NCBI GenBank assembly: GCA_015075075.1
Contig: JABTVA010000008.1
Location: 50,215-114,214, forward strand
Direction of reading: 5' to 3'
Source of the DNA: Deltaproteobacteria bacterium
GTDB taxonomy: Bacteria > Desulfobacterota > GWC2-55-46
Length of the DNA stretch: 64,000 nt
Positions 3,098 to 60,066 of the stretch are shown in pieces (the first letter of the stretch is position 1; every line of letters starts with the position of its first letter). Below the pieces are notes generated by a model. It did no database searches. It saw only the letters and a list, made by a program, of their open reading frames with translations, and was not told the DNA's origin. The position numbers and the translations under genes are program-made.

Positions 3098-4609
3098 TTA
3101 TTCCCCGGAGACGGCCCCCCATGCCTCAAGGTCCTTGAGATACCGATAGGCCGCCGGGTCCCCGAGCTCGTGCGCCTTTTTCATGCTGAGATATGAGTTC
3201 CTCCCGTCGCCGAGGTGCATGTAGGCCTTGCCGAGGTCTATGTGCATCGAGGAATCGGAAGGGTCGAGATCCGCTGCCTTCCGGAAGTCTTCGAGGGCGT
3301 CCCCGTACCGGCCCGCGATGGCATGGGCCGTGCCGCGCCCCTTGAACCCCTGTGCGTTGTCCGGGTATAACGCTATCTGGCGGCCCCATAACGTGAGAGA
3401 GTCCTTCCAGACCGCCTGTTGCCTGAATGTCATGGCGGAGAAGATGGCCGAAACCATGAAGACGGCCAGCAGCACTGGGAAGAAGGCCTTCGCGCGCCTC
3501 CGGACCGCCCAACCTGCGCCTGCGGAGGCAAGCATCGCGAAGCCTATGCCGGGGATGTACATGAACCTGTCGGCGGCGGCGTGCATCCCGACCTGCAATA
3601 TGCCGATTATCGGAAGGAGAGTCATAAGGAAGTAGGCCCATACGGAAACACAGACCCTGCTCCACCTGCAAAGATAGACGGCGAGCGCGGTAATCGCCGA
3701 AAGCGCAAGGACGTAAACCGCGAAGAGCGTATCGAGGCCCGCGGGGAAATCGCGGGGATAGAGCGGGGCGAGGTTGACCGGGATAAGCGTTTTATAGATA
3801 TAAAAAAGATAGCCCCTGGCGGTGATGTGCAGGCGGCCCTCAAGCGGGAGCGCTTCCGCGGATATTATGACGCTGTCCACAGTATGAGACCAGACGTTCA
3901 GAAGCCCCGTTGCCATGCTCAACGCGAAGAAGGGGGCCTTCTCCAGCACGAGCCTCTTCCAACCGTCAGTCCTGGACCTCTCAAGGGGGTAGAAGTCGAG
4001 TATGAGTAGCACAAGAGGCATGGTGACGGTCATGGGTTTACTGAGAAGCGACAGGACGAAAAAGACGAGCGTAAGCGCGTAGGATAATGCCTTCCGGCCC
4101 CGTGCATAGCTCAGATAGGCGTGCAGGCCCAGGAGGAAGAAAAAGGCGTTAAGGACGTCCTTCCTTTCGCTCACCCATGCGACCGATTCGACCTTGAGCG
4201 GGTGGAGCCCGAAGAGGAGGCCCGCTGAAAGGGCGATTATGAAGAGCGCCTTCGGCCTGAGGCCGCCCCTTGCTGACGCGAGCCTCGTTGCCAGCAGGGC
4301 CACGAGGAAGGCGTTCGCGCCGTGGAGTATCGCATTTGAAAGGTGGTAGCCGAAAGGGTCGAGGCCCCAGAACGCGTAATCGAGCGAGAAGGAGAGGAGC
4401 GTAACCGGGATCCAGGCGCCGTTCGCGAACGAGGTGAAGACGGCCTCGAGGTTCAGGCCCCGGATAGCCGTGTTGTTATGGACGTACATGAGGTCGTCCC
4501 AGTTGACGAAATCGAACGAGAGGGAGGGAAGGTAGATGACGAAAGAGGCCAGGGCCGATATGAGTGCGGCAACGAGGACTATCTTCGGTTGTCTTCTGTT
4601 TTCATTCAT
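3098..4609 (-). CDS. GT-C-fold (PMT_2/TMTC-like, DUF1736-type) membrane protein with C-terminal TPR repeats, paralog 1
   Basis: 503 aa. Multi-TM N-domain with an 'FDFVNWDD' loop motif (DD/DE motif of PMT/TMTC-type glycosyltransferases). C-terminal soluble TPR repeats ('...GRYGDALEDFRKAADLDP...'). First of four tandem paralogs. Confidence 0.7.
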   Translation of the reverse strand: MNENRRQPKIVLVAALISALASFVIYLPSLSFDFVNWDDLMYVHNNTAIRGLNLEAVFTSFANGAWIPVTLLSFSLDYAFWGLDPFGYHLSNAILHGANAFLVALLATRLASARGGLRPKALFIIALSAGLLFGLHPLKVESVAWVSERKDVLNAFFFLLGLHAYLSYARGRKALSYALTLVFFVLSLLSKPMTVTMPLVLLILDFYPLERSRTDGWKRLVLEKAPFFALSMATGLLNVWSHTVDSVIISAEALPLEGRLHITARGYLFYIYKTLIPVNLAPLYPRDFPAGLDTLFAVYVLALSAITALAVYLCRWSRVCVSVWAYFLMTLLPIIGILQVGMHAAADRFMYIPGIGFAMLASAGAGWAVRRRAKAFFPVLLAVFMVSAIFSAMTFRQQAVWKDSLTLWGRQIALYPDNAQGFKGRGTAHAIAGRYGDALEDFRKAADLDPSDSSMHIDLGKAYMHLGDGRNSYLSMKKAHELGDPAAYRYLKDLEAWGAVSGE

Positions 4610-4635
4610 TTCCGGTCCTGATCATCGGGGCCAGC

Positions 4636-6441
4636 TCATTTACCCGGGCCCTGCGCTTCGAGGTCCTTCAGATACCTTGAAGCCGCCGGGTCCCCGAGGT
4701 CATGGGCCCGCTTCATGCTGAGGTACGAGTTTTCGCTGTCGCCCAGGTGCATGTAGGCCTTTCCGAGGTCTATGTGCGCCGAAGGGTCCGCGGGGTCGAG
4801 CAGGACGGCGTTCTTGAAGTCCTCGACCGCCTTCCCGTACTGGCCTGAGATGGCATGTGCAACGCCGCGGGCCCTGTAAGCGTCCTTGTTCCGGGGGTCC
4901 CCGTCCAGGACGAACGTGAGGTCCGCGATCCCCTCCTCGAACCTGCCGGCGTTTACAAGGGCGCCCCCGCGTTTCATATAGGCGTCGGTCGATACCGGGC
5001 CGAGCTCTATCGCCCGGTCCAGGTTTTCGATGGCAAGGTCGAATTTACCGAGGCTTATATACGCGTTGGCGCGGTTCATGAACCCGCTCGCCGTGTCCGG
5101 GGTGATCCTGCCAAGGTCCTCCATGGCGAGGTCGAGCCTCCCCTGGACGAGATAGGCGTTCCCCCGGTTTACATACCCGTATGGATGGTCCGGGAAGAGC
5201 CTTATCTGCTGGTTCCAGAGTGAGAAAGAGTCCTTCCATACGGATATCTGCTTGAGCGCAAGAATTGAGAGCAATGCCGAGGCCGCGATAATTACAGCCA
5301 GGACCGGCGCGAACGCGCCCTTTTTCCTTTCCGCCAGCCTCCCGGCCCCTGCCGCGACGAGCACGGCGATCCCCATGCCAGGGATATATGTGTACCTGTC
5401 AGCCGCGGCCTGCATCCCCACCTGCACGAGCCCTATTACCGGGATTAGCGTTATCACGAAGTAGGCCCAGACCGCGATGAAGGCCCAGCTCCGCCTCCGA
5501 AGTAAAATCGCGAGCGCGGTCAGGGCCGAAAGCGCGAGCACATAGAGGGCGAAAAGGCCAGGTCCCATAGCGAAGTCGCGGGGGTATACAGGCGCAAGAT
5601 TGACCGGCACGAGGGTCTTGTAGATATAGAAGAGATAGCCCCGGGCCGCGATATGGAGACGGCTCCCGAAGGCAAGCTCTTCTGCCGGGACCATTGCCAT
5701 GGTCTGGGACCACATGGTAGCGAGCACGGCTGCCAGGCTCAATATGATAAAAGGGAGCTTCTCTATTATTAGCCTTTTCCAGCCGTCTTTTCTATGCCTC
5801 CCGAGCGGATACAGGTCGAGTATCAATAAAACCAGCGGCATGGTTACGGTCATGGGCTTGCTGAGGAGCGATAAAACAAAAAAGACGAGCGTCAAAACAT
5901 ATGAGGAAGCCTTTTTGGTTTTGGCGTAGCCGAGATAGGAAAGGACACCCAGGAGGAAAAAGAAGGCGTTAAGGACGTCCTTCCTTTCGCTTATCCAGGC
6001 AACCGACTCTACCCTGAGGGGATGGAGCCCGAATAGGAGCCCGGCTGAAATGGCTATTATGAAGAGCGCCTTTGCATTCGAGCCCCTTGTCCCCGCGAGC
6101 CTTGCCGCGAGCAGGGCCACAAGGAAAACGTTAGCCGCGTGGAGCGCCGAGTTCGTCAGGTGATAGCCCAATGGGTTAAGCCCCCAGAGGGCGTAATCGA
6201 GAGAGAGGGATAGGAACGTTACAGGGACCCACGTCCCGAGGATGACGGATGTAAAGGCCCACTTGAGGCCGGGCCCCTGCAATCGGGGGTTCTCATAGAC
6301 GTAGAGCTGGTCGTCCCAGTTTACGAAATCGAAGCCGAGGGAAGGGAGATAGAGCGCGAATGCGGCTATGGCCGATAAGAGGGCCGCGATGAGGATTATG
6401 TTTTCTGGTTTGCGGTTATCCGGCATACCGGAACGGTCCAT
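4636..6441 (-). CDS. GT-C-fold (PMT_2/TMTC-like) membrane protein with C-terminal TPR repeats, paralog 2
   Basis: 601 aa. Same architecture as paralog 1 ('FDFVNWDD' loop, about 11 TM helices, longer TPR domain). Confidence 0.7.
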   Translation of the reverse strand: MDRSGMPDNRKPENIILIAALLSAIAAFALYLPSLGFDFVNWDDQLYVYENPRLQGPGLKWAFTSVILGTWVPVTFLSLSLDYALWGLNPLGYHLTNSALHAANVFLVALLAARLAGTRGSNAKALFIIAISAGLLFGLHPLRVESVAWISERKDVLNAFFFLLGVLSYLGYAKTKKASSYVLTLVFFVLSLLSKPMTVTMPLVLLILDLYPLGRHRKDGWKRLIIEKLPFIILSLAAVLATMWSQTMAMVPAEELAFGSRLHIAARGYLFYIYKTLVPVNLAPVYPRDFAMGPGLFALYVLALSALTALAILLRRRSWAFIAVWAYFVITLIPVIGLVQVGMQAAADRYTYIPGMGIAVLVAAGAGRLAERKKGAFAPVLAVIIAASALLSILALKQISVWKDSFSLWNQQIRLFPDHPYGYVNRGNAYLVQGRLDLAMEDLGRITPDTASGFMNRANAYISLGKFDLAIENLDRAIELGPVSTDAYMKRGGALVNAGRFEEGIADLTFVLDGDPRNKDAYRARGVAHAISGQYGKAVEDFKNAVLLDPADPSAHIDLGKAYMHLGDSENSYLSMKRAHDLGDPAASRYLKDLEAQGPGK

Positions 6442-6671
6442 ATGAAGATTGTTGAAGGTTTTCAGGAGTTTACCACCGGGGCCCGCCGGTTTGCAAGCCG
6501 ATATTACCTTTGTCCGGCGCCCCTGGCCTCAAGGTCCGAAATGTATCTGGAGGCAGAAGTGTCGCCGAGCTCAAGCGCCTTTCTCATGCTGGCGTATGAT
6601 CTCTCGAAATTGCCGAGGTGCATATATACCTTGCCGAGGTCAATGTGCGCGGACGGGTCCGAGGGGTCGAG
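6371..6671. repeat. Near-identical ~300-bp segmental duplication, copy A (gene 3 end / intergenic / gene 2 start)
   Basis: Direct sequence comparison. Positions 6380-6612 match 8170-8402 exactly, with scattered mismatches beyond. Confidence 0.9.
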
Positions 6672-8228
6672 CGCAATCGCCTTCTGGAAGTCTTTAAGCG
6701 CATCGACGTAACGGCCTGCAAGGGCGTATGCCGTGCCGCGCGCCTTGTATACGGCCTTGCTTTCAGGGTCCGAATCCACTAACACGGTGAGGTCGGCGAT
6801 CCCTTTATCGAGCCTGCCCGCATTTACGAGGGCTACTCCGCGATTGAAATATATCTCGTTTATGAACGAAGGATGGAGGCTTACGCTCTTGTCCAGGTCT
6901 TTGATGGCATCTTCGTACATTCCCTTGGCAAGGTACACGGCGCCGCGGTTTACGTACCCGTATGCATAATCCGGGAAGAGCCTGACCTGATGGCTCCAGA
7001 GGGACAGTGAGTCCTTCCATACTCCAGCCTGCCCGAGCGTAGTGAAAGAGAGAAGGGCCGAGGCCGCTACCACTGAAGCCAGGACCGGCGCGAACGCGCT
7101 CCGGTTCTTTCCCGCGGCCCACCCTGCCCCTGCCGCAGCCAGTACCGCGAGGCCCATCCCCGGAATATAGGTGTATCTGTCGGCCGCGGCCTGCATCCCG
7201 ACCTGCAAAAACCCTATTACCGGGAGGAGCGTTACCGCAAAATAGGCCCAAACGGCTATGAAAACCCCGCTCCGCCTCCTGAGATAGACGGCGAGCGCCG
7301 TAATCGCAAGGAGCGCGAGGGCATAGGCCGCAAAGTGAAGGTTAAGGCCGGTTTGGAAATTCCGCGGGTAAAGTGGGGCGAGGTCCATGGGCGCAAGGGT
7401 CTTGTAGATATAAAAGAGGTAGCCTCTTTCCGCGACATGGAGCCGTCCGCTAAAGACGAGCTCCTGGACCGTGACCATTGCCTTGCTCTGCGACCAGACG
7501 GTGATAAGCCCGGTCGCGAGGCTCAGCATGAAGAAAGGGAGCTTCTCGATAACGGGCCTCGTCCAGCCTTCTTTCCTGAACCTGTCGAATGGGTAGAAGT
7601 CGAGTATCAGGAGCACGAGCGGCATGGTGACGGTCATGGGCTTACTGAGAAGCGAGAGGACGAAAAAGACAAGCGCCAATATATACGACGAGGCTTTTTT
7701 GTGCTTGGCGTAGCCGAGATAGGAAAGGATACCCAGGAGGAAAAAGAACGCGTTCAGGACGTCCTTTCTTTCACTTATCCAGACCACGGACTCTACCCTT
7801 AGCGGATGGAGCCCGAAGAGGAGCCCGGCTGAAAGGGCGATTAAAAATAGCCCCCGTGCCCCGAAGCCGCCTCTTGTCCCCGCGAGCCTCGCGCCGAGCA
7901 AGGCGACAAGAAAGACGTTTGCCGCATGGAGTGCCGAGTTCGTGAGGTGGTATCCCAGCGGGTTCAGTCCCCATATGGCGTAATCGAGCGTGAAGGAGAG
8001 GAAAGTTACTGGCACCCATGTCCCGACCACGACCGAGGTAAAGGCCTGTTTGAGATCCAGGCCCCGGATATCCGGGTTCCCGGTCACGTAGGAAGGGTCG
8101 TCCAGGTCCACGAACTCGAAACCGAGGGAAGGCAGATAGACCGCGAACGAAGCCACGGCCGATAGGAGGGCCGCGATGAGGATTATGTTTTCTGGTTTGC
8201 GGTTATCCGGCATACCGGAACGGTCCAT
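6504..8228 (-). CDS. GT-C-fold (PMT_2/TMTC-like) membrane protein with C-terminal TPR repeats, paralog 3
   Basis: 574 aa. N-terminus identical to paralog 2 ('MDRSGMPDNRKPENIILIAALLSA'). C-terminus identical to paralog 4 ('...SYASMRKALELGDTSASRYISDLEARGAGQR'). Confidence 0.7.
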   Translation of the reverse strand: MDRSGMPDNRKPENIILIAALLSAVASFAVYLPSLGFEFVDLDDPSYVTGNPDIRGLDLKQAFTSVVVGTWVPVTFLSFTLDYAIWGLNPLGYHLTNSALHAANVFLVALLGARLAGTRGGFGARGLFLIALSAGLLFGLHPLRVESVVWISERKDVLNAFFFLLGILSYLGYAKHKKASSYILALVFFVLSLLSKPMTVTMPLVLLILDFYPFDRFRKEGWTRPVIEKLPFFMLSLATGLITVWSQSKAMVTVQELVFSGRLHVAERGYLFYIYKTLAPMDLAPLYPRNFQTGLNLHFAAYALALLAITALAVYLRRRSGVFIAVWAYFAVTLLPVIGFLQVGMQAAADRYTYIPGMGLAVLAAAGAGWAAGKNRSAFAPVLASVVAASALLSFTTLGQAGVWKDSLSLWSHQVRLFPDYAYGYVNRGAVYLAKGMYEDAIKDLDKSVSLHPSFINEIYFNRGVALVNAGRLDKGIADLTVLVDSDPESKAVYKARGTAYALAGRYVDALKDFQKAIALDPSDPSAHIDLGKVYMHLGNFERSYASMRKALELGDTSASRYISDLEARGAGQR

Positions 8229-8461
8229 ATGAAGATTGTTGAAGGTTTTCAGGAGTTTACCACCGGGGCCCGCCGGTTTGCAAGCCGATATTACCTTTGT
8301 CCGGCGCCCCTGGCCTCAAGGTCCGAAATGTATCTGGAGGCAGAAGTGTCGCCGAGCTCAAGCGCCTTTCTCATGCTGGCGTATGATCTTTCGAAATTGC
8401 CGAGGTGCATATATACCTTGCCGAGGTCTATGTGCGCCGAAGGGTCTCCGGGGTCGAGCTC
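8161..8461. repeat. Near-identical ~300-bp segmental duplication, copy B (gene 4 end / intergenic / gene 3 start)
   Basis: See copy A. Includes the identical 62-bp intergenic spacer. Confidence 0.9.
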
Positions 8462-10090
8462 CGCTGCCTTCAGGAAGTCTTCGAGCGCCTCCCCGTATTG
8501 GCCGGAAATGGCGTATGCGGTGCCGCGCGCCCTGAATATGGCCTTGTTCCCCGGGTCTGAATCGAGGACTACAGTAAAATCCGAGATACCTTCCCTGAAC
8601 CTGCCGGCGTTTACGAGGGCGCTCCCGCGGCTTGAGTACGCAGGCAATGTGTTCGGCTCCAGCTCTATGGCCTTATCGAGGTCCGGGATGGCCAGGTCGA
8701 ACCTGCCGAGGGTCAAATAGGCGTTCCCGCGGTTAAAGTACCCGTGGCCGCTTTCAGGAGACATCTTACGGAGGTCCTCTATCGCGGATTCGTTCATGCC
8801 AAGCGCAACATAAGCGGCGCTCCGGTTCACATACCCCTGGCTGTGGGACGGGAAGACCTCTATCTGCCGGCTCCAGAGGGAGACCGGATTTTTCCAGATC
8901 ATTTCCTGCTTGAAGGCGAAAAAGGAGAGTAGCCCCGATGCCGCCAAAACCAGCGCCAAAACGGCCGGGAGACTTTTGCTATTCCTTTTCACAATCCAGC
9001 CTGCCGCGGCGGAAACGAGAATCGCCAGTCCGATGGCCGGAATATATGTATACCTGTCGGCAGCCGCCTGCCTTCCTACCTGCATGAGGCCTATGACAGG
9101 GAGCAGCGTGACCGCGTAGCAGGCCCATGCGGAAATAAAGGCCTTGCTCCATCTACGAAGGTAAAGGGCGAGAATGGTTATGGCTGCAAGCGCCGCGAGG
9201 TAAAGGACCGCCGAAAGGTTAAGGCCTGAGGCGAAGTCGCGGGGGTAGAGGGGCGCAAGGCCGGCCGGGATGACCGACTTGTAAATATAGAATAGATACC
9301 CCCTCGCCGCGATATGGATCCGGTCGGCGAACGGGAGCGCCTCCGGCGGCATCACGGCCTTTCCCTGCGACCAGATGGTCATTAGCCCGGCTGCCAGGCT
9401 CAGCATTAAAAATGGGAGTTTTTCAATTAGCGGCCTCTTCCACCCTTCCCTCTTGAGCCTTTCAAGAGGATAGTAGTCTAATATGAGAAGCACGAGCGGC
9501 ATGGTGACCGTCATGGGCTTACTTAGAAGTGAAAGGACGAAAAGGACGAGCGTCAATACATAGGAGGATGCCTTTTTGTTTTCAGCATACCCGAGATAGG
9601 CGTGGAGGCCGAGGAGAAAGAAGAAGGCGTTCAGGACGTCCTTTCTTTCGCTGACCCATGCCACTGACTCGGCCCTTAGAGGGTGTAGTCCGAAAAGGAG
9701 CCCGGCCGAGAGGGCCATGAGGAATAGCCCGCCTGCCCCGAGACCGCCCCTTCTGCCGGCGAGCCTCGCGGCCAGGAAGGCCACGAGAAAGACGTTGGCG
9801 GAGTGGAGTATCGTGTTCGTGAGGTGGTACCCCAGCGGGTCCAGCCCCCATACGGCGTAATCGAGGGCGAATGACAGGAACGTGAGCGGTATCCAGGTGC
9901 CTACCACGACAGCCGTGAAGGCCCATTTGAGGTCAATGCCCTGGATATCAGGGTTCTCGGATACGTACGCGGGGTCGTCCCAGTCAACGAAATCGAAGCC
10001 CAGGGAAGGGAGATAGAGCGCGAATGCGGCTATAGCGGATATGAGGGCCGCGAGGAAAATAAGTTTAAAAGAATAATCTCTTTCCGGCAT
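8291..10090 (-). CDS. GT-C-fold (PMT_2/TMTC-like) membrane protein with C-terminal TPR repeats, paralog 4
   Basis: 599 aa, same architecture ('FDFVDWDD'). Confidence 0.7.
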   Translation of the reverse strand: MPERDYSFKLIFLAALISAIAAFALYLPSLGFDFVDWDDPAYVSENPDIQGIDLKWAFTAVVVGTWIPLTFLSFALDYAVWGLDPLGYHLTNTILHSANVFLVAFLAARLAGRRGGLGAGGLFLMALSAGLLFGLHPLRAESVAWVSERKDVLNAFFFLLGLHAYLGYAENKKASSYVLTLVLFVLSLLSKPMTVTMPLVLLILDYYPLERLKREGWKRPLIEKLPFLMLSLAAGLMTIWSQGKAVMPPEALPFADRIHIAARGYLFYIYKSVIPAGLAPLYPRDFASGLNLSAVLYLAALAAITILALYLRRWSKAFISAWACYAVTLLPVIGLMQVGRQAAADRYTYIPAIGLAILVSAAAGWIVKRNSKSLPAVLALVLAASGLLSFFAFKQEMIWKNPVSLWSRQIEVFPSHSQGYVNRSAAYVALGMNESAIEDLRKMSPESGHGYFNRGNAYLTLGRFDLAIPDLDKAIELEPNTLPAYSSRGSALVNAGRFREGISDFTVVLDSDPGNKAIFRARGTAYAISGQYGEALEDFLKAAELDPGDPSAHIDLGKVYMHLGNFERSYASMRKALELGDTSASRYISDLEARGAGQR

Positions 10091-11067: not shown

Positions 11068-12729
11068 ATGGGAGAGCCCCTTAAGATAATCCCGCTCGGC
11101 GGGCTGGGCGAGATAGGCCTTAACATGATGGCCATCGAGTACGGCGACTCCATAATGGTCGTGGACTGCGGCCTCATGTTCCCCGAGGACTACATGCTCG
11201 GGATAGACATCGTCATCCCGGACGTGAGCTATCTTAAGAAGAACGCCGAAAAGGTAAAGGCCTACATAATAACCCACGGCCACGAGGACCACACCGGCGC
11301 CCTGCCTTTCATCCTGCCCCAGGTCGACGCGCCTATATACGGCACCGCCCTCACCATAGGTCTCATAGAGGAAAAGCTCGAGGAGTTCGGACTCGCCAAA
11401 TCGACATTATTCGAGACGGTCCGCCCGAGGGACAGGGTATCCATAGGGCCCTTTGATATAGAATTCATACGCGTCAGCCACTCGATAGTGGACGGCTGCG
11501 GCCTTGCCATAAGGACGCCCGTGGGCACCGTTATCCATACCGGGGACTTCAAGATGGACCAGACCCCGGTGGACGGAGAGGTAATGGACTACGCCCGGTT
11601 CTCGGAATACGGTGAATCCGGGGTGCTCCTTCTCATGTCGGACTCGACGAACGTCGAAAAGGAGGGCTATTCCCTTTCCGAGCGCGAGATAGGGAAAAAC
11701 CTCGAGGAGATATTCAGGAGGTGCGAGGGCAGGATAATAGTCGCCGCCTTCTCCTCCAACATACACCGCATCCAGCAGGTCATGGAAGCCGCCGCAAGGC
11801 ACGGGCGCAGAGTGATACTCAACGGCAAGAGCATGGTCGCCAACGTGCGGATAGCGCACGCCCTCGGGTATCTCAAGTACCCGGAAGGGCTCATGGCCGA
11901 CTTGAAGGAAATAGACTCGATACCCCACGACCAGGTCGTGCTCCTCACTACCGGGAGCCAGGGCGAGCCCATGAGCGCCCTTACCCGCATGGCAATGGAC
12001 AACCACAAGCAGATAAAGGTAAGGAAGGGCGATACCGTCATCCTTTCCTCCAAGTTCATACCCGGCCACGAGAAGGCCATATCCACCATGATGAACCACC
12101 TCTACAGGAGAGGCGCTGACGTCATATACGAGAAGGTCTCGGAGGTGCACGTCTCCGGGCACGCGAGCCAGGAGGAGCTTAAGATAATGCTCAACATGGT
12201 GCGCCCGAAATACTTTATCCCGGTGCACGGCGAGTACAGGCACCTGGTCCTCCATTCGAGGCTCGCCGCGAGGATCGGCATACCTGAAGAGAACGTAATA
12301 ATAGCCGAGGACGGGGACGTGGTCGAGTTCGCCCCTGAAGGCGGGTTCGTGAAGGCCGGGAAGGTCGAGTCCGGGAGGGTATTCGTTGACGGCAAGGGCG
12401 TGGGAGACGTGGGCGAGATGGTATTGAAGGACAGGAACCACCTGGCCCAGGACGGCATGGTGCTCGCCCTCGTTGCCATAAACGCCACGACCGGCGACAT
12501 GGTCTACGGCCCCGAGATAGTGACCCGCGGGCTTGTGCTCGAAGAGGGCAGGCCCGGCCTCATCGAGGAAGCCCGGAAGGTGGTCATAGAGTCGCTCAAC
12601 AGCCTCAATGCCGAGGTAAAGACCGAGCAGCTCGAGATAAAGGAAGAGGTGAGGAGGGCGCTACGCCGTTACTTCAACAGGACGTTGGAGCGGAAACCCG
12701 TCATACTCCCGATGATAATCGAGATATAG
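11068..12729 (+). CDS. rnj: Ribonuclease J (metallo-beta-lactamase/beta-CASP RNase)
   Basis: 553 aa with the 'HGHEDHTGALP' MBL motif and beta-CASP C-terminal domain. Length and motifs are typical of RNase J. Confidence 0.85.
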   Translation: MGEPLKIIPLGGLGEIGLNMMAIEYGDSIMVVDCGLMFPEDYMLGIDIVIPDVSYLKKNAEKVKAYIITHGHEDHTGALPFILPQVDAPIYGTALTIGLIEEKLEEFGLAKSTLFETVRPRDRVSIGPFDIEFIRVSHSIVDGCGLAIRTPVGTVIHTGDFKMDQTPVDGEVMDYARFSEYGESGVLLLMSDSTNVEKEGYSLSEREIGKNLEEIFRRCEGRIIVAAFSSNIHRIQQVMEAAARHGRRVILNGKSMVANVRIAHALGYLKYPEGLMADLKEIDSIPHDQVVLLTTGSQGEPMSALTRMAMDNHKQIKVRKGDTVILSSKFIPGHEKAISTMMNHLYRRGADVIYEKVSEVHVSGHASQEELKIMLNMVRPKYFIPVHGEYRHLVLHSRLAARIGIPEENVIIAEDGDVVEFAPEGGFVKAGKVESGRVFVDGKGVGDVGEMVLKDRNHLAQDGMVLALVAINATTGDMVYGPEIVTRGLVLEEGRPGLIEEARKVVIESLNSLNAEVKTEQLEIKEEVRRALRRYFNRTLERKPVILPMIIEI

Positions 12730-12860
12730 GCTGCTGCTCAAAAAATCCATCTGCGTCGAAGGCTACGTCGCTGGACACTCCGGCGTACGCGAAAAGTACG
12801 CCTCGTTCCTTGCTCCCCTGTTCCTAATGGGGCCTCGCATCCGGAGCTTTTTGAGCAGCC
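12729..12860. mobile_element. MITE-like element, family C (TIR GGCTGCTCAAAAA / TTTTTGAGCAGCC)
   Basis: Terminal inverted repeats. Homologous copies at 24033, 31811, 35350 and 56511. Its 3' end is read through by the artificial N-terminal extension of the next ORF. Confidence 0.7.
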
Positions 12861-12913
12861 TAAGCGAATTTTGTATTTTCCCGCAACCTGTTGGCCGAAG
12901 GGTTTTTATTGAG

Positions 12914-14053: not shown

Positions 14054-15921
14054 ATGGCGGTAAAGAAGATAGGCGAGCTCCTGGTCGAATCAGGGCTCAT
14101 AATGAGGACCAGCTCGAAGAGGCCCTTGCCGCGGGCAAGGAGAACAAGGGCACCAGGACAGGCGCCCTGCTCGTAAAGCTCGGGTACGCAACGGAGATTG
14201 ACATAGCCCAGACCCTCTCCTACCAGGTCGGCATCCCCTTCGTGGATATGGCTTCCACGACCGTGGACCCGGAGAGCATCAAGCTGGTCAACGAAAAGCT
14301 CGCCAGGAAGTACCTCCTTGTGCCGCTCTACCATGACAAGAAGGTCCTGAGGGTCGCCATGTCGGACCCGCTGAACCTGAACGCCATAGACGACCTGAGG
14401 TTTTCGACGGGCTTGGAGATACAGCCCTTCATCTCCACGCTCTCGGACATCAACGCCGCGATATCGAGGCACTATCACCTGAACGAGCCCATGATGGACG
14501 AGATACTGGGCGATTTCAAGAAGGACAGGTACGTCGAGGTATTCCACGAGTCCGAATCGAGCAGGGACCTTTCCGAGCAGGTAAAGAAGTCCGCCGCCCC
14601 GCCCATCATAAAGATGGTCGATTCCATCCTGATACACGGCTTCGACAACAGGGCGAGCGACATCCACATCGAGCCGCAGGAAAAGGGCGTGAAGCTCAGG
14701 ATACGGGTGGACGGGCTCATGCGCGAAACCAAGCAGCTCCCCAAATGGGTGCAGGGGCCTGTCGTTTCGAGGATAAAGATAATGGCCCGGATGGACATAG
14801 CCGAGAGGAGGACGGCCCAGGACGGCAGGTTCAAGGTGCGGATAGGGGAAAAGAGCATGGACGTGAGGGTCTCGTCGCTCCCGACCCAGCACGGCGAGAC
14901 GATAGTCATGCGGCTCCTCGACCCCAAGGCCGCCATGATAGACATAGAGGGCATAGGGATAGGAAAGGGTGAGCTCGACCGGGTGCTTGATATCATAGAG
15001 CGCCCCCAGGGGGTCGTGCTCGTCACCGGCCCCACTGGCTCGGGAAAGACCTCGACCCTTTACGCCATGCTCGCCCGCATAAAAAAGGAAGAGATAAACA
15101 TAATCACGATAGAGGACCCGATAGAGTACGAGCTCAAGGACGTAAACCAGGTGGCCGTGAACGACAAGACCGGCCTGACCTTCTCGTACACCCTGAGGTC
15201 GGTACTACGGCAGGACCCGGACGTCATACTCGTCGGCGAGATGAGGGACGCGGAGACGGCCACGATCGCCCACCAGGCCTCCCTTACGGGGCACCTTGTC
15301 TTCTCGACCCTGCACACAAACGACGCGGTATCATCGGTAACGAGGCTCCGTAACCTCGGCGTGCCTTCGTACATGATAGCGTCGGCCCTGAACGGCATAG
15401 TGGCCCAGAGGCTCGTGAGGATGATATGCAAGGGGTGCAGGGAGGAGTACACGCCGACCGGGCAGGAGATACGGAAGGCTGGGCTCAAGTGGTCCGGGAA
15501 GAAGCTCTACAGGGGCGCGGGATGCAGCCTCTGCGCCAATACCGGCTACTCGGGGAGGACCGGGATATTCGAGATAATATCGGTAAACGGCGCGATAAAG
15601 AACCTCATAGCCGCCGACGCCCCCGAGCACGAGATAATCGCCGCCGCCCTGGAAGGCGGCATGACCCCCATGCACATGGACGGGCTCGATAAGGTCTCTT
15701 CCGGCATAACCACGCTCGAAGAGCTCGCTCGGGTCATATACATGGCCAAGGAACCGGTATGCCCGGTTTGCCTTAAGACCGTACCGGCCGGTACGGAGAG
15801 ATGCGGCGAATGCGAAGCTGCCAAGGCCGCCGTCTGTCAATGGTGCGGGAAGGGACGGGAGGAGGGCTGGGTAGCGTGCCCCTGGTGCGCGCACGAGTTC
15901 GCCGCCGCCCCGCTATCATGA
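14054..15921 (+). CDS. MshE/GspE/PilB-family secretion ATPase with N-terminal c-di-GMP-binding MshEN-type domain and extra C-terminal double zinc ribbon; apparent -1 frameshift near 14100
   Basis: Walker A 'VLVTGPTGSGKTSTL' and the canonical tetracysteine 'CKGCREEY...CSLCANTGY'. Upstream, in another frame, 'MAVKKIGELLVESGLI|TEDQLEEAL...LVKLGYATEIDIAQTLSYQ' matches the MshEN motifs. The intact ORF starts at 14242. The C-terminus adds 'CPVCLK...CGECEA...CQWC...CPWCAHEF'. Confidence 0.75.
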
Positions 15922-16055
15922 TGTTGAAAAGCACTTCCTGGACTTTTTCAATCACGGCTTGGCCGGAATAATCCGTCCAAGCCCCGCAAAATGCTCGACC
16001 TTGGACAGTCTTCGCAATTTGGCATCCATCCGTGGATTGCATATCAGGATGTTTT
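15922..16055. repeat. Structured repeat element, family E (copy 1), abutting the stop codon of the ATPase gene
   Basis: About 135 bp with nested inverted repeats (TTGAAAAAGTCC...GGACTTTTTCAA; GGCTTGG...CCAAGCC; GTTGAAAAA...TTTTTCAAC). A second copy at 52580 is about 85% identical. Confidence 0.75.
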
Positions 16056-16213
16056 TCAACACCCTGATAAAGTCCTGATGAGGCCTGCTCCTTTTCGGGG
16101 CTTTCCCTTTTTCCTGCTATCCTGATTTCCATGAGCCAGGCTTTTTTTGGTTTGCGGAAAAGTTCCACTTGTGATATATTCCGGCAATCCACTATGTGAG
16201 CGAGTTCAGGCGG

Positions 16214-16252
16214 GGGCCTTCCCCGAAGGTACCCCCTCGTTTTTAATGCTTC
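16214..16252 (+). terminator. Possible intrinsic terminator
   Basis: GC-rich imperfect hairpin 'GGGGGCCTT...AAGGTACCCCC' followed by 'TCGTTTTTA'. Confidence 0.3.
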
Positions 16253-19737: not shown

Positions 19738-19880
19738 TTGTTGTCATTGCGGAGCTTTGGCTCGAAGCAATCTCAAATGCCCGATATTCCAAAAAATGAG
19801 AGTGCTTCCCGCCACGCTTCGCTCGCGGCTTCGGCTCACACGCTCGCAATGACGAATATGCGAATCAGTCAGAGCTTCCT
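19738..19880. mobile_element. MITE-like element, family B (degenerate copy)
   Basis: Shares the core 'TTGTCATTGC...GATTGCTTCCCGCCACGCTTCGCTCGCGGCTTCGGCTCACACGCTCGCAATGACGAA' with the copy at 22226. The right TIR is degenerate ('GAATCAGTCAGAGCTTCC'). Confidence 0.65.
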
Positions 19881-24029: not shown

Positions 24030-24032
24030 ACA

Positions 24033-24300
24033 GGCTGCTGAAAAAGCCCAATCTGCTGTGTCGTCTTCAAAGTTGGACACTCCGGCGTACAAGAAAAGTA
24101 CGCCTCATTCCTAAGGAAGCTCTGATTAATTCAATGTGTCGTCATTGCGAGCGAAGTTGAAACAATCTTATCTTTGGAAAATCAAGCATTAGAGATTGCT
24201 TCGGAGCTAAAGCTCCTAAGCAATGACAACAGAAAACAGAATTAATCAGACCTTCCCTAATTTTTCGACTCCTTGCATCTTGAGCTTTTTGAGCAGCCTG
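24033..24300. mobile_element. MITE family C copy interrupted by a nested family B MITE (24120-24251)
   Basis: Left part 24033-24119 and right part 24252-24300 match the intact C copies. The inserted B element carries TIRs 'GGAAGCTCTGATTAATTC / GAATTAATCAGACCTTCC'. Confidence 0.75.
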
Positions 24301-24380
24301 AATGTGGGTTTTTGAAGTAATCTTTTAAAGCCCAAGCCGGTTCTGATTTCTGTCCGTCCATCAAGGCCGGGAGGCCTGCC

Positions 24381-30789: not shown

Positions 30790-31808
30790 TGAGGATACTC
30801 GTTACCGGCGCCGCCGGTTTCATAGCGGGCTACGTGGTGGAGGAGCTCCTTAACAAGGGCCACGAGGTAGTGGGCATAGACAACTACTCCAAGTACGGCA
30901 AGGTGGAGAAGAGCTACGACAGCCACCCGAAGTACGCCTTCCGGGAGGGCGACGCAAAGGACACGGCCCTCATGAAGGAGCTAATATCCGACTGCGACCA
31001 TGTGCTGGCGGGCGCCGCCATGATAGGCGGCATTTCCTATTTCCACGAGTTCGCCTACGACCTCCTGGCCGAGAACGAGAGGATAGCGGCCTCCACGTTC
31101 GACGCCGCCATATGGGCGCACAAGCACCGGAAATTGAAGAAGATAAACGTCCTTTCCTCCTCGATGGTCTTCGAGAACTCGGATACCTTCCCCACGCCGG
31201 AAGGAGAGCAGTTGAGGTGCCCGCCGCCTCTTTCGACCTACGGCTTCCAGAAGCTCGCCTGCGAATACTTCGCAAGGGGCGCGAACGAGCAGTACGGCCT
31301 TCCTTACACCATCATAAGGCCTTTCAACTGCGTGGGCACAGGCGAGAAGAGGGCCCTTTCTGACAGGGAGATAATGTCGGGGAACGTGAGCATGGCAATG
31401 AGCCACGTCGTCCCTGACCTCGCGCAGAAGATATTGAAAGGGCAGGACCCGCTCCACATACTCGGCGATGGAAGACAGGTCCGCCATTATACGTACGGAG
31501 GCGATTTGGCGGAGGGCATAAGGCTCTGCATAGAGAGCGAAAAGGCAATAAACGACGACTTCAACCTCTCGACACCGGTCTCTACGAGCGTCATCGAGCT
31601 TGCCGAGCTTATCTGGAAGAAGATAAAGGGAGACGTCCCGTTCAGGTACACATCGGACCCGCCCTTCAGGTACGACATAAGGAAAAGGGTCCCTTCGGTG
31701 GAGAAGGCGAAAAGGGTCTTGGGCTTCGAGGCGAAGACCTCGTTATCAGAGGCCCTGGACGAGATAATACCGTGGATAGAGAAGCAGATAGCCGTGGGCG
31801 GGATATAG
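30789..31808 (+). CDS. NAD-dependent epimerase/dehydratase (extended SDR; UDP-glucuronate 4-epimerase/decarboxylase-like)
   Basis: 'GAAGFIAGYV' glycine motif and the 'YGFQK' catalytic YxxxK. The start overlaps the upstream stop (ATGA). Confidence 0.75.
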   Translation: MRILVTGAAGFIAGYVVEELLNKGHEVVGIDNYSKYGKVEKSYDSHPKYAFREGDAKDTALMKELISDCDHVLAGAAMIGGISYFHEFAYDLLAENERIAASTFDAAIWAHKHRKLKKINVLSSSMVFENSDTFPTPEGEQLRCPPPLSTYGFQKLACEYFARGANEQYGLPYTIIRPFNCVGTGEKRALSDREIMSGNVSMAMSHVVPDLAQKILKGQDPLHILGDGRQVRHYTYGGDLAEGIRLCIESEKAINDDFNLSTPVSTSVIELAELIWKKIKGDVPFRYTSDPPFRYDIRKRVPSVEKAKRVLGFEAKTSLSEALDEIIPWIEKQIAVGGI

Positions 31809-31810
31809 CG

Positions 31811-31958
31811 GGCTGCTGAAAAAGCCCAATCTGCTGTGTCGTCTTCAAAATTCGTCATTGCAGCGTACAAAAAAGTACGCCTCATTCCTCATTTTTCGAC
31901 TCCTTGCATCTTGGACTTTTTGAGCAGCCTGGATGTGATTTTTGAGTTTTTCAGCAAT
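31811..31958. mobile_element. MITE family C (intact copy)
   Basis: TIR GGCTGCTGAAAAAG...CTTTTTGAGCAGCC, plus the conserved tail GAGTTTTTCAGCAATCT. Confidence 0.75.
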
Positions 31959-31985
31959 CTTTAGATAGCCGTGGGCGGGATATAG

Positions 31986-32124
31986 GCAACCCTGAAAATT
32001 GATCTTTTCCCCGGACTCTGCGTCAGTCCGGGAATAAAAATGCTCACATATTATCCATATATGCTCCGCTTTTTATTCCCGGCCTTCCGGGAAAAGCGGG
32101 AAATCTCTAATTTTTAAGGTTGCC
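31986..32124. mobile_element. MITE family D (TIR GGCAACCYCTAAA / TTTARAGGTTGCC)
   Basis: About 140 bp. Core 'TTTTCCCCGGACTCTGCG...GGGAATAAAAATGCTCACATATT...ATATGCTCCGCTTTTTATTCCCGGCCTTCCGGGAAAAGCGGGAAA'. Four copies in the window. Confidence 0.75.
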
Positions 32125-32140
32125 TACATGGTATCCAGAG

Positions 32141-32199
32141 CCTTGCATCTTGGACTTTTTGAGCAGCCTGGATGTGGTTTTGAGTTTTTCAGCAATCTG
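32141..32199. mobile_element. Partial MITE family C (3' half)
   Basis: Matches the 3' terminal ~60 bp of C copies. Confidence 0.6.
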
Positions 32200-35347: not shown

Positions 35348-35349
35348 CA

Positions 35350-35495
35350 GGCTGCTCAAAACGCCCTTGAATGCGTCGTCTTCAAATTGGCAACTCCGGC
35401 GTACAGGAAAGTACGACTCATTCCTCATTTTTCGACCCCTTGCATCTTGGACTTTTTGAGCAGCCTGAACGTGCCATGAGTTTTTCAGCAACCTG
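35350..35495. mobile_element. MITE family C
   Basis: TIRs GGCTGCTCAAAA...CTTTTTGAGCAGCC and the tail GAGTTTTTCAGCAACCT. Confidence 0.7.
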
Positions 35496-35621
35496 CTAAG
35501 AATTCTTCCGACACCCCTTTCCTCACGTTTTACATAGCAATTCCTGCTTCCGGCCATTCCAAAGACGCCTTCTTTTTGTTATACTCTTAATCGTCGTTTC
35601 GATTAAAGGAGAGTCCGCATA

Positions 35622-37320: not shown

Positions 37321-37689
37321 GCCTTGCGCTTGACAAGCGGCTCCAAGCCGGGTAGGGTGGACACAGCCCACCATTTCTCTGAGGTACAGGGCGACAGAAG
37401 AATCTCGTATTCAAGCCTCGTCGAAAAAGACCTTATAACGCGCTGCCGCGCTCTTTTTGGGCATGAGGCTCCGCGCCCTTTCCGCCTCCATCCTCCGGGC
37501 TCGGCCCTTAAGTCGCTCGGCCTTCGGCCTCGCTCCTAACAGCCCCGCCTCGCCCGCCCCGCCCCCATCCCCATGTTCGCTCCGCCTCATGCCCCCGGGG
37601 TTGTTTAAAAACAAACCAGCGCCTTCCTTGAGCTTGACAAGCGGCTCATGGAAATGCAATCATCATCCTGGAAATAGAAATGACATGTC

Positions 37690-37845
37690 CTGGTCAAGGG
37701 AATCCCGTGATCCGCCTGGGTGCGGAGAATCGGGAACGGACCCGCCACTGTGAGCGGATACGAAACCCGCACGAGCCACTGGCCTTAAGGCCGGGAAGGC
37801 GCGGGGAGTAGGTTGTTAATCCGCAAGTCAGGAGACCTGCCAGGA
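37690..37845 (+). promoter_or_regulatory. Cobalamin (AdoCbl) riboswitch
   Basis: 'AAGGGAATCCCGTGATCCGCCTGGGTGCGGAGAATCGGGAACGGACCCGCCACTGTGAGCGG' matches the 5' consensus, including the GCCACTG core. The B12 box 'AAGTCAGGAGACCTGCC' lies at 37825-37841. Confidence 0.8.
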
Positions 37846-37911
37846 TATGCCTCACGGATCTTCGATGGTAAAGAAGGTGAGGGCGGTTGCACTGGTTTTT
37901 CGAGTCTCCGC

Positions 37912-39067: not shown

Positions 39068-39351
39068 GCAACCTCTAAAAATTGCTATTTTCCCCGGACT
39101 CTGCGTAGTGCGGGAATAAAAATGCTCACATATTCAAAATATATGCTCCGCTTTTTATTCCCGCCTTTCCGGGAAAAGCGGGAAAAATCTCTAAGGAACC
39201 TCTGATTAATTCATGTGTTCGTCATTGCGAGCGAAGCGAAGCAATCTTATCTTTTGGAAAATCAAGCGCTTAGAGATTGCTTCGGAGCTGAAGCTCCGCA
39301 ACGACAAGAAACGAGAATTAATCAGAGCTTCTCTAATTTTTAGAGGTCGCC
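39068..39351. mobile_element. MITE family D with a nested family B MITE (39200-39327)
   Basis: Left D TIR 'GCAACCTCTAAAAATT' at 39068 and right D TIR 'TTTTTAGAGGTCGCC' at 39337-39351. The B element 'CTCTGATTAATTC...GAATTAATCAGAG' is inserted just before the right TIR. Confidence 0.75.
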
Positions 39352-51208: not shown

Positions 51209-52585
51209 ATGTTGAAGGAAGGCAGCATCAGCCTCGACAGGCAGGGGCGCATAATAAGGTTCAGCAACAGCCTCGAGGAGATGCTCGGCTACTCGCCGGA
51301 CGAGGTGATGGGAAGGGAGTTCTCCATCTTTGTCCCGCCAGGAGCGGAATCCCCTGTAGAGGCCTTTCTCAGCGGCCCCGAGGAGGAGCCGCACCACGCG
51401 TCCAGGAAGACCGGCATACTCCGGAAGGACGGGACTCTCTCCGAGCCGTACATGTCAATACACCCTTTGAGGGACCGCACGGGCGCGCTCTATTCCGTCC
51501 TCCTTACGCTCTCTGTCAGGAAGAGCGGCCTTCCTGCCTTCCTTACCGAGGAGTTCAGGCGCATATTCAAGTTCTCCAACGACGGGGTCGCCATAACCGA
51601 CCGGGACGGCTCGATAATAGACGTAAACCCCGCTTTCCTCGAGACCTACGGCTATCAAAGGCACGAGGTCCTTGGAAAGAACCCGAGGATACTCAAGTCC
51701 TGCCATTCCACAAGGGACCTCTATGAGAGGATGTGGCAGGACATACTCGACCCCGCGAAAGGCTTCTGGAGGGGCGAGATAATCAACATGGCGCGGGACG
51801 GCTCCGAGGTGCCGGTGCTCCTTTCGATAAACGCGATAAAGGACGAGCACGGGGATATAAGGAACTTCCTCGGCATAACCTTCAACATGACGAGGGAGAA
51901 AAAGCTCGAGAAGCTCCGGAAGATGTACATCGACCATATCGTCCATGACATAAGGGGCCCTCTTACCTCGATATCCATAAATTCCGAGCTCCTACTCATG
52001 GGCCAGGAGCTTCCTGAAAAGGCCAGGAAGAAGCTGGACGTTATCCTCTCCTCGGCCCAGAGGATAGAGTCCATGACCTCCGACATACTCGATTTCAGCA
52101 GGGCCGAGAACGGGAAGCTCGTTTTGAGGAGGGAGGCCGTAATGCTCTCGGAAACAGTCAGGGACGCGGCCCTTCCTTTCGAGGGCTCGGGGAAGAAGCT
52201 CCTCGTCAATGGCGCGCCCATGTCCGACGGGGCCCTCGATTTCGAGGTCTTCGCGGACGAGGACAAGCTGAGGAGGGTCATATACAACCTCTTGAGCAAT
52301 GCCTTCAAGCACGCCTCCGAAATCGTGGACATCTCGGCCGAGGCCGGCGCCGAGGGCCTCAGGTTCACGGTCTGGAACGACGGGAGGGGCATTGCCCAGG
52401 AGGAGGCGGAAAGGATCTTCGACGCCTTCTTCCAGACCGCCGAAGGCGTAAAGACCGGCGGGGCAGGGCTGGGCCTTAGCATCGTCAAGAGCTTTGTAGA
52501 GGCCCACGGCGGAAGGGTCTGGGTCGAGGCCGGAAAAGAGAGGGGAGTTACCTTCGGCTTCACGATACCTTTAGCAGGATGTTGA
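51209..52585 (+). CDS. Cytoplasmic PAS-PAS sensor histidine kinase
   Basis: Two PAS segments, H-box 'HDIRGPLTSISINSELL', and N/G boxes 'YNLLSNAFKHA' and 'GGAGLGLSIVK'. No TM helices. Confidence 0.85.
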   Translation: MLKEGSISLDRQGRIIRFSNSLEEMLGYSPDEVMGREFSIFVPPGAESPVEAFLSGPEEEPHHASRKTGILRKDGTLSEPYMSIHPLRDRTGALYSVLLTLSVRKSGLPAFLTEEFRRIFKFSNDGVAITDRDGSIIDVNPAFLETYGYQRHEVLGKNPRILKSCHSTRDLYERMWQDILDPAKGFWRGEIINMARDGSEVPVLLSINAIKDEHGDIRNFLGITFNMTREKKLEKLRKMYIDHIVHDIRGPLTSISINSELLLMGQELPEKARKKLDVILSSAQRIESMTSDILDFSRAENGKLVLRREAVMLSETVRDAALPFEGSGKKLLVNGAPMSDGALDFEVFADEDKLRRVIYNLLSNAFKHASEIVDISAEAGAEGLRFTVWNDGRGIAQEEAERIFDAFFQTAEGVKTGGAGLGLSIVKSFVEAHGGRVWVEAGKERGVTFGFTIPLAGC

Positions 52586-52715
52586 AAAAGTCCTTCCTGG
52601 ACTTTTTCAACCACGGCTTGGCCGGAATGAATACGACCAAGCCTTGCAAATTGCCCGACTTGAATAGTCTTCGCAATTTGGCAAATCCATCCGTGGTTGC
52701 CTGACAGGATGTTTT
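52580..52715. repeat. Structured repeat element, family E (copy 2); supplies the TGA stop of the kinase gene
   Basis: About 85% identical to the copy at 15922, with the same nested inverted repeats. Confidence 0.75.
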
Positions 52716-52849
52716 TCGACACCCTGTTAGAGGGGGCGAGCTTAAGCGCGCCTTGACTCTTACGCATCCTCCGTGTTAACATTTTTTACCGAAGGGCCGG
52801 TTTCTCTCTCAATATAGGCCCCGGGTATTAGATTTCCTAAAATCAAATA

Positions 52850-53005
52850 GAAACGATCTCCGAGCCATCCTGCCTAAAGCCGGTCCTTTTCATGGCCGCG
52901 CAACGGGGGGTGGCCGATAGGGCCCTGCTGGAAACGGTTTGGCCTCCCCACTGGAAAGGAGATTGACAGTGCCAACCCCTTTCCGTGGCGGTTGGTTTTT
53001 TTTTG
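52850..53005 (+). promoter_or_regulatory. Molybdenum-cofactor (Moco) riboswitch-like leader with terminator
   Basis: 'CTCCGAGCCATCCTGCC..AAAGCCGG...GGAAACGG...GGCCTCCCCACTGGAAAGGAGA' matches hallmark blocks of the Moco RNA motif. It is followed by hairpin 'CCAACC...GGTTGG' plus T9, immediately upstream of modABC. Confidence 0.55.
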
Positions 53006-56491: not shown

Positions 56492-56497
56492 CGTGCG

Positions 56498-56781
56498 GCA
56501 ACCTCTAACAGGCTGCTGAAAAAGTCGTTCTCCGTCGAAGGCTACGTCGCTCGTCACTGCGGCGTACAAGAAAAGTACGCCTCATTCCTCGCTCCTCGAC
56601 GCCTCGCATCTGGAGCTTTTTGAGCAGCCTGAACAAAAACGGAGTTTTTCAGCAAGCTGCCAAGAAAGGATCTTTTCCCCGGACTCTGCTTCGGGCCGGG
56701 AATAAAATGCTATATGCTCCGTTTTTTATTCCCGGCCTTCCGGGAAAAGCGGGAAAAATCTCTGATTTTTTAGAGGTTGCC
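56498..56781. mobile_element. MITE family D with a nested family C MITE (56511-56658)
   Basis: D left TIR 'GGCAACCTCTAACA' at 56498. Directly followed by C 'GGCTGCTGAAAAAG...GAGTTTTTCAGCAAGCTG'. The D body then runs to the right TIR 'TTTTTAGAGGTTGCC' at 56781. Confidence 0.7.
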
Positions 56782-56833
56782 GCCTTATGATATAATTGAA
56801 TGCAGGCCCACAATTCCAGCCCAGGGGGGTGCC

Positions 56834-59930: not shown

Positions 59931-60066
59931 GGCAACCTCTAAAGTGATCTTTTCCCCGGATCTCTTAGTCAGGCCGGAAATAAAATGCTCACATATTGTC
60001 ATATATGCTCCGCTTTTATTCGGCCTTCCTCGATTGTGAGGAAAATCTCCAATTTTAGAGGTTGCC
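59931..60066. mobile_element. MITE family D (intact, perfect TIRs GGCAACCTCTAAA / TTTAGAGGTTGCC)
   Basis: Perfect 13-bp TIRs. The body is homologous to the other D copies. Confidence 0.8.

Follow-up and report, generated by a model that had tools for sequence, protein, structure and literature searches.

A ~150-nt hairpin-rich repeat at two gene ends of an uncultured Thermodesulfobacteriota genome is very probably a MITE

Two genes in the 64,000-nt stretch of DNA analysed here (the window) end in copies of a repeat, family E, which is very probably a non-autonomous DNA transposon: a MITE of ~150 nt with a non-coding, hairpin-rich body. Copy c1 (15917..16066, + strand, 150 nt) sits at the original stop codon of a GspE/PilB-type ATPase gene, and copy c2 (52575..52726, + strand, 152 nt) sits eight codons before the original stop codon of a PAS histidine kinase gene. 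Both were delimited with nhmmer and blastn, c1 additionally by alignment with an empty site and a half copy in related genomes, and c2 by its empty orthologous sites. The two copies are 86–87% identical over ~150 nt in the same orientation, with several 1–2-nt indels between them, and the window contains exactly two occurrences of each of three diagnostic 17–18-mers, compared to 0.05–0.34 expected from shuffles. As such, the original prediction of two copies holds, as does its placement of TGA stop codons at the end of gspE (15919-15921) and inside the TGTTGA on the kinase side (52583-52585). It also had the element adjoin these stops; an overlap with TGA is indeed present, but the extent given for the first copy, 15922-16055, was too short. 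Since the true extent is longer, the stop codons lie inside the left terminal inverted repeat (TIR), not just before the element. Family E further shows several of the features by which MITEs are recognised, being non-coding, shorter than 500 bp, bounded by TIRs and a target duplication (TSD), and found at filled versus empty sites and in unrelated contexts.

The history of c2 can be read from the kinase gene itself. The ORF of this PAS sensor histidine kinase (51209..52585, + strand) encodes 458 aa and ends in ...TIPLAGC*, its TGA falling within the TGTTGA of the element. The closest orthologues, which are 83–89% identical, are 463 aa long, with ...TIPFEGASSSAP or ...TIPSEGAGSSLP at the C-terminus, and the tail ...PLAGC* stands in place of the ancestral ...P(L/F)EGAS(L/S)SAP*. 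The displaced original 3’ end is found on the other side of the element at 52727..52756 (+ strand), where TTA GAG GGG GCG AGC TTA AGC GCG CCT TGA encodes L-EGASLSAP*, matching the orthologue C-termini ...FEGASSSAP and ...SEGAGSSLP. Comparison of the window with the empty sites identifies a perfect TSD, TTAG, with its 5’ copy at 52571..52574 and its 3’ copy at 52727..52730. The filled site reads ACGATACCT-TTAG-[152 nt]-TTAG-AGGGGGCGAGC, and the syntenic loci of CP129479.1 (L021) and DIDN01000105 (L026) read ACGATACCT-TTC/TCC-GAGGGGGCGAGC, without the element and with one copy’s worth of sequence. Taken together, the empty sites, the 4-bp TSD and the displaced C-terminal remnant show that c2 is a transposon insertion, by which EGASLSAP* would have been swapped for AGC*. 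The kinase has kept its HATPase_c domain whole as far as residue 456 of 458; what the insertion replaced was therefore only an unstructured tail. Just downstream of c2, ahead of modABC, lies a Moco/tungsten riboswitch (52846-52977, 58 bits); a second riboswitch in the window, of the cobalamin type (37674-37858, 108 bits), precedes a cobalamin biosynthesis/transport cluster.

For c1 the comparison involves both an empty and a partially filled site. The GspE/PilB-type ORF (14242..15921, + strand), with T2SSE and MshEN domains, takes its last codons from the target and the TIR of c1. In UBA5799 (L031) the end of gspE is empty and reads ...GCC GCC CCT CTT TAA GTCCTGAGAAGG, while the 3’ flank of c1 in the window reads ATAA-AGTCCTGATGAGG, and therefore the insertion point of c1 is the original TAA stop codon of gspE. 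Furthermore, a 5’ half copy is present in CP129479.1 (L028) at the identical nucleotide and in the identical orientation, consisting of the TIR and hairpins 1 and 2, with the 3’ half deleted. Immediately 5’ of this half copy is ATAA, the tetramer found 3’ of c1 in the window, and the GspE protein encoded there (P0121) ends in ...APITGG*, its stop codon being the TGA of the TIR. The 3’ copy of the TSD of c1, ATAA, is located at 16067..16070 in the alignment with both relatives; the 5’ position (15913-15916) has decayed to CTAT, and only the orthologue in CP129479.1 reveals the match to ATAA. In the window, the TIR has CATGA in place of CAGGA, a mutation that introduces an in-frame TGA two codons ahead of the TIR’s own, which is still in frame at 15925-15927. 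On these alignments, the insertion of c1 is older than the split of the window genome from the CP129479 lineage, and it is absent from UBA5799.

Two other features of this locus should be mentioned. Around 14054-14110 the 5’ part of the GspE/PilB-type gene is frameshifted, with MAVKKIGELLVESGLI in one frame and the remaining protein in another. Orthologues comprise ~625 aa in a single frame, and the one in UBA5799 is frameshifted elsewhere, near its 3’ end; the frameshift in the window is either an assembly error or the mark of a pseudogene. Ahead of the downstream cytochrome c7 gene, at 16140-16245, a promoter-like TTGCGG-17-TATATT precedes a G+C hairpin with a T-run behind it. This region has no match in Rfam and, unlike the spacer around it, has hardly changed in CP129479 and UBA5799; it could represent a small RNA, a leader or an attenuator.

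The TIRs of family E are 15 nt long and imperfect, with the consensus CAGGNTGYTGAAAAA (also written CAGGNTGTTGAAAAA). In c1, the left TIR CATGATGTTGAAAAG (15917..15931, + strand) carries a G-to-T change relative to CAGGATG in the consensus, and the right TIR, CAGGGTGTTGAAAAA on the − strand (16052..16066), matches the consensus exactly, with 0 mismatches. In c2, the left TIR CAGGATGTTGAAAAA (52575..52589, + strand) includes the kinase’s present stop codon, and the right TIR, CAGGGTGTCGAAAAA on the − strand (52712..52726), was located by motif scan; the two arms match at 13 of 15 positions. Allowing up to two mismatches, the window contains 21 occurrences of the motif CAGGNTGYTGAAAAA, versus 0.6 expected. 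These occurrences mark the ends of the E copies and those of a second family, X (either its ends or an internal second right-end repeat), and leave two isolated matches at 1396 and 62785 that are probably due to chance.

Family X is the commoner repeat. It is likewise ~150 nt long, and combines the same terminal repeat as E (CAGGCTGCTGAAAAA) with a second, tandem right repeat. In the window it is found at 12730-12891, 24031-24315, 31809-31960, 32141-32199, 35348-35497 and 56509-56660, and in related genomes it is found at different sites (19651-19810 of L021, 5923-6072 of L028 and 15556-15674 of L031), which supports the mobility of the whole TIR-sharing group of E and X. The copies X1, X3 and X4 adjoin in-frame stop codons at 12729, 31808 and 35347, respectively. 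Whether further copies of the element also adjoin stop codons had been put forward as a check, and the answer is negative for the E copy in a groundwater Deltaproteobacteria MAG (L001). This copy, flanked by a csp gene and a polyprenyl synthase (ispA) gene, faces away from the synthase and toward the 3’ end of csp, and adjoins no stop codon on its own strand. No TSD is recognisable around this copy.

X copies in turn contain other MITEs. Family N, with IS5-like ends GGAAGCTCTGATTAATTC and CTAA/TAA flanks, is present at 24111-24262 and 39191-39340, with partial copies near 19856 and 22390; one of its copies is nested in an X copy and another in a copy of G, a MITE-like family with the ends GGCAACCTCTAAAAAT (~31984-32127, ~39068-39350, ~56496-56782 and ~59936-60020). 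The G copy that holds N is the one at ~39068-39350, and X5 is inserted in the left end of a G copy at CTAA, making these spacers multi-element ‘nests’. X3 is bracketed by a 23-nt direct duplication, AGATAGCCGTGGGCGGGATATAG, of the upstream gene’s last codons (31786-31808 and 31962-31984), far longer than the 4-bp duplications elsewhere, and a solo right part of X is found ~180 nt further on. Repetition of another kind is seen at 3098-10090 on the − strand, where four tandem paralogous genes for TPR proteins of ~500–600 aa form 1.8-kb direct repeats of 63–83% identity; the relatives L028 and L031 have fewer copies of them.

How, then, would such an element have moved? Family E was presumably mobilised in trans by a DDE transposase making 4-bp staggered cuts at (Y/W)-T-A-R, a target of the IS5 type. 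The targets read from the insertions are TTAG for c2 and (A/T)TAA for c1, and for X they are ATAG/TTAG, CTAA together with CTGA, and CTAA/CCAA. From these sequences, a shared E/X target of (Y/W)TAR would fit the Py-T-A-Pu type. IS5 duplicates Py-T-A-Pu tetranucleotides, for which TTAG and CTAA are documented targets (PMC5493358), and this 4-bp target duplication is what E has in common with the IS5 family. It is from the TSD only that we infer a transposase, mobilisation in trans and an IS5-like assignment. The TIR of IS5 itself is GGAAGGTGCGAATAAG, which the E/X TIR CAGGNTGYTGAAAAA does not resemble. Within ~82 kb of the source genome and in the related loci, no transposase gene bounded by the E/X TIR was found; an autonomous partner is not strictly required for calling E a MITE. 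Upstream of the window (L032, 1-9000) there are Mu-like prophage genes, namely Mu Gam, an AAA_22/MuB-like gene and a 527-aa ORF in the position of MuA, which are unrelated to the E/X terminal repeats.

The position of the copies at stop codons can be understood from both the element and its targets. The left TIR carries a TGA (CAGGATGT-TGA-AAAA), and an ORF entering the element in that frame would end within three codons. In several E/X insertions the duplicated target is the stop codon itself, as it would have been for c1 at the TAA of gspE. In a genome of 58% G+C, TA(A/G) tetramers would be tolerated in short spacers almost only at the stop codon or the last few codons, and surviving insertions would be found there. 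We rejected target preference as the sole cause, given that most YTAR sites in the window are not at stop codons; they are mostly in coding DNA, where insertion would be lethal, or in unannotated regions. The spacers themselves offer little room. In UBA5799, the spacer between gspE and the cytochrome c7 gene has two YTAR sites, the stop-codon TTAA and one in the conserved region upstream of c7. The 19-nt RNase J spacer, in which X1 sits, has the stop codon as its single TAR, and the spacer between the kinase and modA has two YTAR sites, one within the Moco riboswitch and one immediately upstream of that riboswitch. With almost no permissive sites in the spacers before insertion, target preference and purifying selection therefore explain the stop-codon pattern. 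Most of these copy-number and target statistics rest on the sister family X, as E has four known copies: the two in the window, the half copy in CP129479 and the one in the groundwater MAG.

The one feature that could point beyond an ordinary MITE is orientation. All nine independent E and X insertions adjoining stop codons are co-oriented with the upstream gene, which is not predicted by a symmetric cut-and-paste DDE model, and which is confounded with replichore and gene strand, nearly all genes being on one strand. It might be that E and X form a MITE superfamily whose transposition or retention is linked specifically to stop codons and to which way the upstream gene points, exapted as portable 3’-UTR modules that bring along a back-up stop; we regard this as improbable.

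No more probable is a reading in which E is a selected 3’-UTR module, acting as a 3’-end stabiliser, a terminator or a processing site for RNase III or RNase E, possibly in addition to its origin as a MITE. The predicted structure speaks for it. Both strands of the E copies fold far better than shuffled sequences (z −4.7 to −6.2, with the sense strand at −4.7 to −5.1), in agreement with the folding check proposed for them, and hairpin 1 of c2 (52581..52611, + strand) pairs the TIR core GTTGAAAAAGTCC across a 5-nt loop with an inverted extra TIR core GGACTTTTTCAAC, giving 13 perfect bp in an A-tract/stem/U-tract arrangement of −17.6 kcal/mol. Of the three perfect hairpins ending in T-runs that had been proposed, however, the stable fold is what remains: the consensus has five hairpins, hairpin 1 of c2 is the only perfect one, and its counterpart in c1 has decayed to −4.6 kcal/mol. 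The T-runs are located in stems or loops, not in single-stranded tails after G+C-rich stems. In hairpin 1 the U-run pairs with the A-run and the G+C core is just 4 bp (−4.3 kcal/mol), and a terminator scan predicted no terminator-like site within either copy.

The comparative evidence does not favour a selected module either. Compensatory pairs number 1 in 50, with an unfavourable covariation term of +1.67. In CP129479 the 3’ half of the orthologous copy is gone, and what is left of this copy is 84% identical to the window, versus 76–77% at the 4-fold degenerate sites of the flanking genes, a difference that is not significant (z ~1.6). As judged from this alignment, family E is conserved no better than synonymous sites. 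Moreover, relatives lack the element at both loci, and the copy in the groundwater MAG does not follow a gene on its own strand. The co-orientation of all nine stop-adjacent insertions would also suit a module with a role in the 3’ UTR, and there is precedent in that ERIC and Correia elements are able to alter the stability of host transcripts (reviewed in PMC10969869). As such, we found no evidence of E being kept for an RNA function; as a MITE, its copies would be co-transcribed passively as 3’-UTR hairpins, and a passive effect on mRNA stability is possible by analogy with those elements. The original prediction likened the repeat to REP/BOX-type elements with a role at transcript 3’ ends. 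In being repeated, hairpin-rich, extragenic and located at gene 3’ ends it does resemble them, but its position at stop codons reflects insertion history rather than a role at the 3’ end.

Less probable still is that E belongs to the REP/REPIN-type repeats mobilised by RAYTs, or is a palindrome-associated element derived from IS200/IS605, whose Y1 transposases act on ssDNA. Hairpins do adjoin both ends of E, a conserved TA-containing tetranucleotide is found 5’ of it, and a strict orientation bias would be expected of strand-specific ssDNA transposition. Y1 elements of the IS200/IS605 type make no target duplication, whereas the flanks of E co-vary between left and right (TTAG/TTAG for c2, ATAA/ATAA for c1) and the empty site has one copy, as in a true TSD. 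Furthermore, the ends are genuine 15-nt inverted repeats and not REP heads, inspection of the aligned copies by eye reveals no REP head of the GTAG type, and the gene lists for ~82 kb include no RAYT or TnpA gene. That E is instead a family of independently transcribed, paralogous small RNAs, the alternative offered by the original prediction, has the least to recommend it: E is structured and multi-copy, and sRNAs derived from MITEs do exist (such as CbsR of Coxiella, from QMITEs), but E has no Rfam match even at E<=10, no promoter common to its copies (one promoter-like match in c1 is absent from c2), no predicted terminator and no covariation, it begins within the upstream ORF, and at orthologous loci it is either missing or truncated.

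A protein-coding role can be dismissed as well. The indels between c1 and c2 shift all six reading frames, and the peptide similarity that is seen (FLDFFNHGLAG...) hops frames from one copy to the other, therefore family E is non-coding; the coding reading was ruled out on account of this similarity falling in different frames in different copies. Moreover, a concatenated six-frame translation of the E copies returned no match and no protein family among 5.8 billion proteins.

Being without a match in Rfam, plasmids or literature, family E appears to be undescribed. Rfam yielded no match at gathering or permissive thresholds (E<=10), with sub-threshold noise only (E >=1), neither E nor X had a blastn match in plasmids, and a full-text literature search with the TIR strings retrieved only unrelated primers. 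An nhmmer search with the E profile over 429 kb of window and related loci detected no diverged copies beyond the known ones. When GTDB representative genomes were scanned for an exact pattern, the groundwater MAG provided the one true addition, next to one chance match (L002), and a relaxed 19-base pattern applied to metagenomes retrieved 14 loci, all of them by chance; both scans require an exact match and thereby miss diverged copies such as the half copy in CP129479. Extending the source contig by ~18 kb, to ~82 kb in total, revealed no further copies of E or X, leaving the number of E copies in these ~82 kb at two. Offsets measured from two genes differ by 57 nt between the window and the deposited contig JASNYS010000004.1, which may differ from it by an indel between 1.5 kb and 51 kb. 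Three independent short-read assemblies break 27 nt into c2, and breaks also fall inside X copies (seen at the ends of L004, L005 and L006 and the starts of L029 and L030). Breaks inside c2 are expected of a repeat, and hint at the presence of more copies.

In its behaviour, family E matches known bacterial MITEs such as the QMITEs, ERIC and Correia elements. It is very probably bacterial junk DNA of an ordinary kind, not a dedicated terminator or sRNA gene. ERIC and Correia elements duplicate TA, and their TIRs differ from those of E. By analogy, the closest match in behaviour is QMITE1/QMITE2 of Coxiella burnetii, which overlap the 3’ ends of genes by 1–50 bp and are located mainly in 3’ UTRs (PMC5896051). 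Like E, these are small and non-coding, with TIRs, stable hairpins and sites in 3’ UTRs, and the element may supply C-terminal residues or the stop codon, as for enhC in Coxiella (PMC5896051). They share no sequence similarity with E, which resides in a different phylum, in UBA5799-like MAGs of the Thermodesulfobacteriota, and which has a defined 4-bp (Y/W)TAR duplication and a very low copy number. Comparable in another respect are ERIC/IRU of the Enterobacteriaceae and the Correia elements (NEMIS/CREE) of Neisseria, MITEs of ~100–200 bp that are co-transcribed and form long hairpins in mRNA. For ERIC at the 3’ ends of Yersinia genes, and for Correia elements, changes in transcript stability take place via RNase E or RNase III (PMC10969869). 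Whereas such effects on RNA have been shown experimentally for ERIC and Correia, E is known here from its sequence, with no conservation beyond neutral. Lastly, the way in which E, X, N and G accumulate recalls BOX, RUP and SPRITE of Streptococcus pneumoniae, where unrelated small repeat families pile up and nest in intergenic ‘safe havens’; the sequences and the host differ, and BOX is modular, without a classical TIR and TSD.

None of these findings alters the current understanding of MITEs. They do add an apparently undescribed MITE family, together with a commoner sister family, in uncultured Thermodesulfobacteriota of the UBA5799-like type, and the E/X repeats account for the breaks of short-read assemblies at these positions in this lineage. 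For annotation, it follows that both gene ends are chimeric, the AGC* tail of the kinase and the stop codon of gspE being transposon-derived. The true intergenic regulatory regions begin after the element, with a promoter and the Moco riboswitch after c2, and the conserved promoter-like region after c1. Moreover, these insertions are a clean example of how a TA(A/G) target preference in a compact, GC-rich genome funnels insertions onto stop codons.
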